A stretch of 19,598 bases of DNA, taken from IMG/VR virus record IMGVR_UViG_2703718673_000007. One strand, given 5' to 3'. The first letter of the stretch is position 1, and each line of letters begins with the position of its first letter. A program made the position numbers. Shown one piece after another: positions 3,001 through 6,000 of the stretch. This DNA comes from a virus (Duplodnaviria; Heunggongvirae; Uroviricota; Caudoviricetes).

Positions 3001-6000
3001 AGAAGGCGGTGAAGCTTTTCTTGCAATGTGGTCAAAAAAAGCGGGAGTTGATGGTATCACTGCGGGGATCGGGATTGTCGCCGGAAAAGACAGTGAAGGC
3101 AGGCCTGTAAGTCAGGTTGCAATTTCTGCGTCGCAGTTGTTTGTCTTTGACCCGAATAATCCGGATAACACAGCCTATCCGTTTGCGGTATCAGGTGGCA
3201 AGGTAGTGATCCCGAAAGCGATGATTTATGACGCGGTGATTGAAACACTGGTGTCGCGGAAGGTTGTGGCGGATGAGGTAAAAGCCGGGGTAAGTATCAC
3301 TTCGCCAGTTATCCGGAGTGCCGTTATTCAGAACGGAAACTTTCAGGTTGATTCTCAGGGTAACCTGAATATTGGAGGCCTTTTCAGTGTTACGTCACAA
3401 GGGCAACTGACAATTCGTTACTCTAATCAGAATGTAGGACTGGTGATCCGCAATGATAAAATTGAGGTTTATGACCAGAATGGACGACTGGCTGTTCGCA
3501 TAGGCAGATTACGCTGATCAGGAGGTGAGTATTGGAATACGGTTTTGCCATTTATAACAGAAATAACGTTAATGTTACGGGCGTGCTGACTCCAGTATTT
3601 TTCCTGGACAGATTTACAGCGGAGTCTGGCTCAAAGACGTACACTAATAAACCCGACGGGAAATCATTGCAGGCTGTATGTTGTTTATTTCCCTGGAATA
3701 ATGTATTTGCGGATCGGAAAGTACCGAAGATAACCATTAATGACAATACGGTGACGTGGTCGAATCTTGAGCAGGGTATGGGATCTTATATTTATACATT
3801 CTGGGGATAAGTGTTATGTACGGTTTGAGCATTATGAAGCCGGATGGCAGCGTATGGATAAGTCCAGGTTTTACGCCGCAGTGTCTGATCAACAAAGGCA
3901 CCATACCGGCGACTGAAAAGTCTTTTTTTAAAACATCAATCCCGTCAGGCAAAAGTTGTTTTTTCTTTATCAGAACAGAGAAGAAGGCCGATGTCATGTA
4001 CACGCATGAACAGATTGATGGATATCATGCACTAAGGCTTCATGTAATTGTCAGGGGAACGAACCCTGGTGTTACGACGGTTTATGCTTTCGCGAATATG
4101 GTTACTCCACCTTCTGAGTATGGTATCGCCATGTATAACCCGGACGGTGAGATGATTTATCATGGCGAAATGATGCTGCTTGACGCGAAGTTAATACCTG
4201 TTGATATCAAATTTGAAAAGGACCTTGGATATCCATGCGCAATCATGCCTGCACTGGTCGGGTATTATAACTGGAAAAGAACTCCTTATGATCGACCGAT
4301 TTATACCACATCCACTGGTGCTACAGGAAATAAAATATATTCCTGTGAGCATTATTCCGGTGGTGCAACATGGGATATTCGAAAGCCGTATATAGATAAG
4401 GTCCTGGTTATTAATACATCAGTATATGATTAGTTGAAGCGAGTCTTTAATATTCATTTAAAATGTCTAAAAAGATGTATTATTAAAAAGTTTAGCGTGT
4501 TATCTGAATACAGGATATCTTAAATGAAGAGTATAGCAACACTGGTTGTGTGTGCAATCTCCGGGATTGCCTGTGTAAATTTATCTGCACATGCAGCAGA
4601 AGGAGAGCATACAATTTCTCTGGGGTATGCGCACTTTCAGTTTCCGGGACTGAAGGATTTTGTAAAGGATGCGACTGCTCATAACAGGGAGACTTTCAGT
4701 CATTTCGTCAACAGAAACTACTTTTCTTCATTGGGCGAATATACAGATGGTCGGGTCAGTGGATATGAAGGCAAGGATAAAAATCCACAGGGCATTAATA
4801 TCAGGTATCGCTACGAGATAACGGATGATTTTGGCGTTATCACCTCTTTTACATGGACGCGTTCTCTCACTAACTCACAGACATTTATTGATGTGCAGTC
4901 AGCCGATCATACCAGGAAGATTAAGAATCCGGCAGCTTCTGCCAGAACGGATATCAGGGCGAATTACTGGAGTCTGTTAGCGGGGCCTTCATGGCGGGTT
5001 AATCAGTACATGAGTTTATATGCGATGGCAGGGATGGGCGTTGCTAAAGTTAGCGCTGACCTGAAAATTAAGGACAATATTAACAGTAGTGGCGGATTTT
5101 CTGAAAGCAACAGCACGAAAAAAACCTCCCTTGCGTGGGCTGCAGGTGCACAGTTTAACCTGAATGAGAGTGTTACACTGGATGTGGCTTACGAAGGTTC
5201 CGGCTCTGGCGACTGGCGCACGAGTGGCGTTACTGCTGGCATTGGCCTGAAATTCTGACCTGTATCCGGTAACCGTTTACTACCCGCTGTGATGGCGGGT
5301 TTTTTATTGCCCGTACAGGGCAAAAACCGTAAATTATGCGTGGGTGCCTTTCGGCTGATGGCTGGAGGGTGAACCTGAAGGCCTGATGTGGAAAGGCCCC
5401 GAGTCAACTTAACGTTAACCCGAGGCCCTAACACTTCGTACCTTAAGCAAGTAGAAGGTTAGCGCCTCTCTGTAAAAGGAGTCAAGCGCTATGTCGCAAA
5501 AATCGCTTATCACCGTCACAATTTGCATGACGGTTATCTTCACCATCTGGATGTTGCACGGTTCACTGTGTGAGTTCCGGCTGAATTTGTGGGGAGCGGA
5601 GTTTGCGGCGTTCTTACAGTGTAAGCAGTAGGAAAACCGCGACGGGGACGAGAGTCCCCGTCAACTGGTTGCTGAGGTTCAGCCGATATGGCACCCGTTT
5701 CAGGTGAGAGAATGAACGATAAAATTCTCTGGTATATGCAGCGTGTTGTGAGAAATTCCCGCAACCCTGAATTTATGAATGAAGTTAAAGACGCCTGCCT
5801 TAAAAAGCAGGCGTTTTGTTTTGAGGCACCTGATGGCTTTTTGGTGCTGCGTTCTGTGCTCAGTGCTGATGGTATCCCTTATGTTCTGGTGTTGCTGGGC
5901 GTGTGTACGGGGAGTAACAGCGTTGAGCGTTACCTGCCGGAGGTGAAGACATTAACCCATCTGGCTGGCGGACGCTGGGCTGAGTTCCATACGGCAAGGC

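Follow-up and report, generated by a model that had tools for sequence, protein, structure and literature searches.

A hok/sok-type cassette downstream of lom in Stx phages, and the apparent origin of the 24B_1 RNA as its antisense transcript

The tailed-phage sequence IMGVR_UViG_2703718673_000007 (IMG/VR; 19,598 nucleotides, hereafter the window, to whose whole length all positions refer unless another accession is named) carries a small toxin gene of the hok family downstream of lom. We find that positions 5307-5700 are best explained as an autonomous type I toxin-antitoxin moron of the hok/sok type, located after lom in Shiga toxin (Stx) phages of the 933W/Sp5/Φ24B type, and we hold this reading, with its full mechanism, with considerable confidence. 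The antisense partner has been detected before under another name; judging from the sequence match, the precursor of the published RNA 24B_1 appears to be the antisense RNA of this hok gene, and the 20-mer known as 24B_1 is most simply a decay or processing fragment of it. The toxin open reading frame (ORF) is not new, as it is annotated in RefSeq and its exact peptide belongs to the toxicity set of a recent preprint. The novelty lies in linking hok with 24B_1, and the standing of the locus as a toxin-antitoxin pair and its mok-less state are likewise unrecorded in the searchable literature, in which we found no study of this hok locus as such. A type I system of phage Sp5, hokW-sokW, has been published (Takada et al. 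2021, PMC8621323); the locus described here is a second, paralogous hok locus of these phages.

24B_1, celebrated as the first functional bacterial molecule of "microRNA-size", was described as an RNA of Φ24B, 20 nt long (TAACGTTAAGTTGACTCGGG), located between lom and vb_24B_43, and it was represented by 2223 directional reads of a single 20-nt species (PMC4426718). This sequence has one exact match in the window where zero are expected by chance, and the match lies on the minus strand, opposite the hok leader. In this region Φ24B and the window have 99% identity, with no difference in the Hok ORF; the two differ only at 5433-5439 and at one loop base. The promoter p24B_1, published with a -35 TTGACT and a -10 CGCTAACCT (PMC4426718), is the promoter that we assign to the antisense RNA, so that 24B_1 and the antisense RNA of the window agree in sequence, strand and promoter. 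Its authors presented 24B_1 as a regulator that acts in trans on d_ant, S and sdhB; we read it as a cis-antisense antitoxin of hok or a fragment of one. Its 80-nt precursor binds Hfq with a dissociation constant of 25 nM (PMC4426718, PMC10732415). The words hok, sok and toxin-antitoxin are absent from the 24B_1 papers of 2015 (PMC4426718) and 2023 (PMC10732415) and from a review of 2025, the preprint on Hok homologues (10.1101/2025.08.07.668861) does not mention 24B_1, and no publication linking the two was found in the searchable literature.

The earlier note on this DNA had expected a minus-strand antisense RNA over the hok leader, which it could not identify by eye. Such an RNA can now be placed (Table 1), and it matches the experimentally detected 24B_1. 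In sokW the identical -10 hexamer TAACCT lies 7 nt upstream of the annotated 5' end, and transferring this distance to the window puts the antisense start near 5448. Within the promoter, AGGTTAGCGCC is nearly invariant in related cassettes. The RNA would be 60-80 nt long, the published 80-nt version reaching to about 5367, and is predicted to fold into one hairpin whose arms, 5429-5414 and 5408-5393, give a free energy of -31.3 kcal/mol (z -5.6) as against -15.1 kcal/mol (z -1.7) for the sense strand. In 56 relatives, standard pairs make up 95.3% of the stem cells read on the minus strand and 75.5% of those read on the plus strand; four stem positions that are G·U on the minus strand are A·C on the plus strand. 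The hairpin energies in the relatives range from -24 to -33 kcal/mol on the minus strand and from -14 to -22 kcal/mol on the plus strand, with a single outlier, locus L068, at -16.6 versus -10.0. Given this asymmetry between the strands, the leader hairpin is a property of the antisense transcript. Just 3' of the hairpin, in the target of the antisense 5' tail, positions 5433-5439 are the part of the cassette richest in insertions and deletions; this variability could set specificity among cassette copies residing in one genome.

The toxin is encoded at 5491-5631 on the plus strand by an ORF of 46 amino acids whose product, MSQKSLITVTICMTVIFTIWMLHGSLCEFRLNLWGAEFAAFLQCKQ, is a HokA-like member of the hok family. 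The Hok/Gef architecture that had been noticed from the sequence by itself is confirmed by profile searches: Pfam HOK_GEF (PF01848) matches at E 4e-8 over profile positions 6-42 of 42, its 33.2 bits exceeding the cut-off of 22, and PHROG 251, "MokW-like host killing", matches with E 2.8e-24. Residues 6-22 are hydrophobic, S25-L26-C27-E28 aligns with the LCE of HokW and of the Hok of plasmid R1, and C27 is invariant in 31 sequences. Both cysteines, C27 and C44, are directly encoded, as are those of HokA, and hence TadA editing is not needed. The ratio of non-synonymous to synonymous polymorphism (pN/pS) of the ORF is 0.36 over 26 distinct coding sequences, and two alleles from Stx phages differ by 7 synonymous and 0 non-synonymous changes; on these comparisons the ORF is under purifying selection. 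Although unannotated in the original phage records, it is present in RefSeq as WP_000078907.1, "Hok/Gef family protein"; a full-text literature search for the RefSeq protein accessions of this Hok gave no match.

A 2025-26 preprint cataloguing Hok homologues (10.1101/2025.08.07.668861) lists the identical peptide as 72_1589, in a high-abundance cluster (its Table S2), and reports its cloning as plasmid LRP157 for toxicity assays. There, 42 of the 45 homologues tested were toxic and the non-toxic ones are named as 19_179, 60_1482 and 69_1540; as 72_1589 belongs to the tested set and is not among the three, it follows that the peptide is toxic on expression, in line with what the earlier note had supposed. 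Among named subfamilies the best-scoring one is HokA (NCBIfam NF007290), with which the peptide has about 45% identity, as compared with an unverified HokA sequence, and the common motif WM..SLCE...AAFL.CK. HokA is 50 amino acids long and the window peptide 46, and at 60% identity the preprint places them in different clusters, 93 for HokA and 72, a cluster of its own, for the window peptide (10.1101/2025.08.07.668861). Membership of the HokA equivalog itself was considered and rejected, the score being 38.4 bits against a cut-off of 89 (NF007290).

The hok mRNA is also predicted to show the long-range pairing of the family. Its 5' end, GGGUGCC, is complementary to GGCACCC at 5690-5696, and RNA 5342-5700 has a minimum-free-energy fold of -155.4 kcal/mol (z -6.6) in which 5342-5348 pairs with 5690-5696 and 5351-5358 with 5679-5686. 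These two long-range helices are 97.7% and 85.9% paired over the 56 relatives. When the RNA is truncated at its 3' side to end at 5664, the predicted fold changes and the 5' end switches to a ucb-like partner at about 5388-5400. The Rfam model of the hok leader, RF01794, aligns over its full length (model 1-157) to 5342-5504 in the sense orientation. Upstream, the candidate hok promoter agrees with the consensus at 8 of 12 positions, and its ATTGC and TA...T are retained in relatives whose upstream context differs.

The perfect 9-bp hairpin that had been seen just after hok is real by all measures applied. Its fold has -20.4 kcal/mol (z -4.3; 0 of 200 shuffles as good), it is 99.8% paired in the 56 relatives, and at two of its pairs compensatory changes occur in 21 and 29 sequences. 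Because no T-run follows, it is not a plus-strand terminator; by analogy with R1 hok it is probably where 3' exonucleases halt, thereby defining the active mRNA in its truncated form. On the minus strand (5640-5663) the same hairpin is followed by CGGTTTTCCT and scores as terminator-like, with no leftward transcript evident for it to end. Further downstream, at 5791-5822 within the orf66 coding sequence, a hairpin of terminator-like form, GACGCCTGC...GCAGGCGT with TTTTGTTTT after it, scores on both strands; on the plus strand no such site comes earlier past hok, and this one could end hok or late transcripts. The annotated ATG of orf66 (vb_24B_43, PHROG 610; 5688-6089), 5688, falls within the 3' fold-back element of hok. 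That at 5712 is preceded by the ribosome site GGTGAGAG and would give a 125-amino-acid product spanning positions 1-124 of the 124-position PHROG profile, which makes 5712 probably the true start.

The strong AAAGGAG site noted earlier ahead of the toxin is indeed present; it is not unusual for a hok gene, since hokW has AAGGAG at the same 9-nt spacing from its ATG. The further claim that no mok frame overlaps the toxin stands as well: no ORF of at least 15 codons that starts in the leader crosses the hok ATG in the window. What the leader holds are short mok-like remnants (Table 1), the longer of which, opening with GTG 5388, stops at TAG 5460-5462, 28 nt before the hok ATG. The conserved ATG at 5386 opens an ORF of 61-79 codons overlapping hok in two relatives, L005 and L013. 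Altogether a leader ORF overlapping hok is found in 19 of 57 distinct cassettes, from four different starts, and in none of the other 38, and its presence varies even among alleles with an identical Hok peptide. With overlap in only this minority and with shifting starts, the frame is not conserved in the clade; conservation around 5386-5400 seems better explained by RNA pairing than by a frame. In the VT2-Sakai locus L004 (AP000422), mokW (544-756) and hokW (601-756) have a common stop and starts 57 nt apart, so that the annotated MokW is an in-frame N-terminal extension of HokW and not an out-of-frame mok of the R1 kind.

Table 1. Features of the hok cassette and its left boundary in the window
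Feature	Position	Strand	Details
lom terminator	5282..5300	+	hairpin, then TTTTTTATT; left cassette boundary; from terminator scan
Candidate hok promoter	5307..5335	+	-35 TTGCCC (5307-5312), 17-nt spacer, -10 TAAATT (5330-5335); putative, read by eye
hok mRNA 5' end (tac-like)	5342..5358	+	GGGUGCCUUUCGGCUGA; predicted to pair with mRNA 3' end or with 5388-5400; RF01794 position 1 = 5342
mok-like leader frame remnants	5386..5462	+	ATG 5386-5412 (8 codons + stop); GTG 5388-5462 (24 codons + stop)
Sok-like antisense RNA	5386..5448	-	about 14-nt single-stranded 5' tail, 16-bp hairpin, then CCUUUCC; ends approximate
24B_1, exact match	5398..5417	-	spans the loop of the antisense hairpin and a portion of each arm
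Antisense promoter	5456..5485	-	-35 TTGACT (5485 to 5480), 18-nt spacer, -10 TAACCT (5461 to 5456); = published p24B_1
hok Shine-Dalgarno, AAAGGAG	5475..5481	+	9 nt 5' of ATG
9-bp GC-rich hairpin, perfect	5641..5662	+	GACGGGGAC-GAGA-GUCCCCGUC; just past hok stop
3' fold-back (fbi-like) element	5679..5696	+	UCAGCCGAUAUGGCACCC, complementary to 5342-5358

The cassette is both portable and widespread. Region 5259-5700, directly after the Ail/Lom protein gene at 4524-5258, shows 100% identity with phage 933W, with VT2-Sakai (Sp5) and with further Stx1 and Stx2 phages, as it does with more than 200 complete chromosomes of Shiga toxin-producing E. coli. More distant relatives, at 77-87% nucleotide identity, align over about 5322-5696, with the -35 motif ATTGC (from 5307) kept just upstream, and occur in four contexts: following ogr, where a P2-like prophage ends; in other Stx phages, after lom; in an O-island near the urease genes; and in a lambda-like prophage, between gpJ and the tail-fibre gene. 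In all of these, homology comprises the -35/-10 region and GGGTGCC (5342-5348) through GGCACCC (5690-5696), and then ends. Such sharp ends in differing contexts support the notion of a moron inserted after lom, as had been proposed, and the comparison suggests that the portable autonomous unit is about 390 bp, 5307-5700. The left edge of the previously proposed extent, 5307-5662, is thereby retained, and its right edge is moved, as the conserved unit reaches 5696-5700.

Related copies are found in 1750 of 5426 complete E. coli genomes, with up to 9 per genome, and also in Salmonella, E. albertii and Citrobacter; plasmids rarely carry the cassette (34 of 72,556 records). The window cassette occurs in 198 phage records as against 80 for hokW. 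A scan of species-representative genomes returned 7 cassette loci; for three, the assembly is that of an unrelated taxon. These three (L009, L010 and L012) are E. coli-type hok cassettes, with 76-100% protein identity, in assemblies of Xanthomonas pisi, a Planococcaceae metagenome-assembled genome and a Vagococcus sp.; they are probably contaminating enterobacterial DNA, two of them standing on short contigs. Elsewhere in the tail/late module of the window, an ORF at 7298-7549 encodes an 83-amino-acid glycine-rich protein (MGYGLLDIANQ...GGIAGSLF) named "bacteriocin" in RefSeq; downstream of it, from about 8894, follows a very large protein with an LPD38 domain.

In the mechanism that we propose, the plus strand would be transcribed from near 5342 into a hok mRNA of about 355 nt, whose GGGUGCC 5' end would pair with GGCACCC at 5690-5696 and lock the full-length mRNA in an inert state. 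Slow trimming of the 3' end as far as the hairpin at 5641-5662 would free the 5' end, which would pair anew with 5388-5400, and the leader would open. From the TTGACT/TAACCT promoter the minus strand would yield an RNA of 60-80 nt with full complementarity to the hok leader; on pairing with the leader the duplex would be cleaved and Hok would not be produced. Once antisense synthesis stops, the more stable hok mRNA would be translated, and the 46-amino-acid Hok would enter the inner membrane, collapse membrane potential and ATP, and kill or lyse the cell. Repression here presumably relies on cleavage and structure, or on a short leader ORF, and not on classical mok coupling.

The new locus resembles hokW-sokW in many respects and is distinct from it. 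Identity of the two was considered and rejected, as the sequence encoded in the published hokW primers is absent from the window and hokW is located elsewhere: hokW, mokW and sokW lie at AP000422 59815-60089 (hokW 59815-59970), about 13 kb rightward and on the opposite strand, and the window has a single hok. HokW, of 51 amino acids (MKQQKAM...DYESEK; sequence verified by a 100% tblastn match), has 37% identity to the window peptide over 35 amino acids. The two loci have in common the phage, the toxin family, the arrangement AAGGAG-N9-ATG, complementarity between the 5' and 3' ends of the mRNA and an antisense -10 TAACCT, and the sokW antisense RNA is also about 70 nt long, covers the leader and is linked to Hfq, its antitoxin activity being partly dependent on Hfq and RNase III (PMC8621323). 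They differ in that mokW is annotated there, whereas the window allele has no mok frame.

The hok/sok (parB) system of plasmid R1, worked out by the Gerdes laboratory, established the fold-back of the 5' end onto the 3' end of hok mRNA and its refolding after 3' truncation. The window locus is alike in that its predicted mRNA is closed by 5'-3' pairing and finds an alternative 5' partner after 3' truncation, in its stable hairpin past the stop codon, and in an antisense RNA with a single-stranded 5' tail and one long hairpin that covers the leader upstream of the hok Shine-Dalgarno sequence. It differs in having no mok frame overlapping hok, in its prophage as opposed to plasmid location, in lacking a clear terminator after its 3' element, and in the toxin itself, which has about 30% identity to an unverified R1 Hok sequence.

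Several observations weigh against the hok/sok reading. Neutralization of the toxin by antisense RNA, cleavage of the duplex by RNase III and killing once the antisense RNA is lost have been shown only for hokW-sokW and R1, from which the antitoxin role would carry over to the window, and the missing mok frame removes the only step at which Sok is known to act in R1. A consensus sigma-70 scan of 5150-5950 called neither the hok nor the antisense promoter; both fall at least one match short of the scan rule, and we call them from position, conservation and the published BPROM prediction. The Rfam covariance search that the earlier note had proposed fails at the curated threshold, RF01794 scoring 35.6 bits against a gathering cut-off of 59, though with E 2e-6 in a local search of 601 nt; the hokW locus, used as a control, reaches 113.5 bits, and a scan of the whole window against Rfam at the gathering threshold gave no match. 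Over the 56 relatives the tac/fbi core helix is almost invariant, so that covariation is absent, and from the 426-column alignment RNAalifold recovered local helices only and not the 5'-3' closure. An intrinsic terminator sought after the 3' element was not found (z 0.24). Finally, the 80-nt product was seen by reverse transcription PCR only after induction and was absent from the uninduced lysogen (PMC4426718). This is odd for an antitoxin, which should be constitutive; the assay was perhaps not strand-specific.

A question remains, how far do the published effects of 24B_1 speak for a different role of the minus-strand RNA? In the published interpretation it is the precursor of a microRNA-like 24B_1 acting in trans on d_ant, the S region and sdhB, and it overlaps hok by coincidence. 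Deletion and plasmid complementation altered lysogenization, induction kinetics and phage gene expression, the mature 24B_1 bound sdhB mRNA in vitro, and the 2223 reads came from a single 20-nt species. We mapped the constructs on the window. The arms of the Δ24B_1 deletion fall at 5269-5290 and 5480-5502, so that 189 nt, 5291-5479, were removed: one half of the lom terminator, the promoter of hok, its entire leader, the larger part of the Shine-Dalgarno site, and also the antisense gene. The 2015 cloning primers of pUC18_24B1, used as the complementing and "overproducing" plasmid, map to 5179-5198 and 5725-5744 and thus enclose the complete cassette including hok, unlike the 2023 paper, which gives the pUC18_24B_1 insert as the 189-nt region (PMC10732415). 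Since the deletion (5291-5479) and the plasmid (5179-5744) both involve hok sequence, the phenotypes are not assignable to the 20-mer. Binding to sdhB was 8±5% at 100 nM and the precursor remained unbound (PMC10732415), whereas the hok leader on the opposite strand is the only perfect target. Hairpin and promoter are moreover conserved in the P2-like prophage and the O-island, outside Stx phages. We know of no proposed 24B_1 targets in either of these contexts. A purely trans-acting role with incidental overlap therefore seems to us improbable. The 24B_1 plasmid was reported to decrease ATP (PMC10732415), which is what a leaky membrane toxin could produce. Whether 24B_1 is a Sok-type antitoxin fragment of an overlooked, mok-less HokA-like gene, with the lower ATP and the shift towards lysogeny due in part to Hok action or to loss of the cassette, we consider evenly poised.

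It might also be argued that the cassette is a decayed hok relic of the kind seen at several chromosomal hok loci, its ORF intact and untranslated for want of mok, and its antisense RNA co-opted for other tasks. Neither the window nor 38 of the 57 distinct relatives has an unbroken mok frame, starts and stops being shifted by small insertions and deletions, the RF01794 score is below threshold, and according to the introduction of the Hok preprint the chromosomal hokA, hokB and hokC do not confer post-segregational killing (10.1101/2025.08.07.668861). Decay is hard to reconcile, however, with the purifying selection on the ORF (pN/pS 0.36; 7 synonymous and 0 non-synonymous differences), with the retention of every RNA element of the hok paradigm between sharp cassette boundaries, with 100% conservation in more than 200 genomes and with 198 phage records, with the toxicity of the peptide deduced from the preprint (10.1101/2025.08.07.668861), and with the activity of the related hokW-sokW in the same phage (PMC8621323); a relic is unlikely, if marginally less so than the trans-acting role. 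A further possibility concerns biological role and is compatible with the molecular mechanism that we favour: Hok would serve not in addiction but mainly in the lytic cycle, as has been proposed for hokW-sokW, tuning lysis timing after induction or acting against superinfecting phages. HokW, from the same phage, emerges some 2 h after mitomycin C and promotes release (PMC8621323), the cassette lies in the late region and points the same way as the late genes, and the 189-nt deletion mutant has altered induction kinetics and burst. Yet this mutant, with faster induction and more progeny, behaves in the opposite way to ΔhokW-sokW, with delayed arrest and half the progeny (PMC8621323), and we regard a mainly lytic role as less likely than not. 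The earlier note had supposed killing of a post-segregational or abortive-infection-like kind; candidate roles for the hok/sok cassette as we read it are addiction to the prophage, control of lysis timing as for hokW, and the exclusion of other phages.

There is nothing unusual about the toxin gene as such, which is already annotated. If the proposed reading is true, Stx phages carry two hok/sok systems, and the uncharacterized one is the more widespread, occurring in 198 phage records as against 80 and, with its relatives, in about one third of complete E. coli genomes. Recognizing the cassette gives 24B_1 an obvious target in cis and, as the deletion and the plasmid that were used both touch hok, calls its microRNA-like interpretation into question. 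The locus would also offer a natural case for asking how control of the Sok type works without mok.

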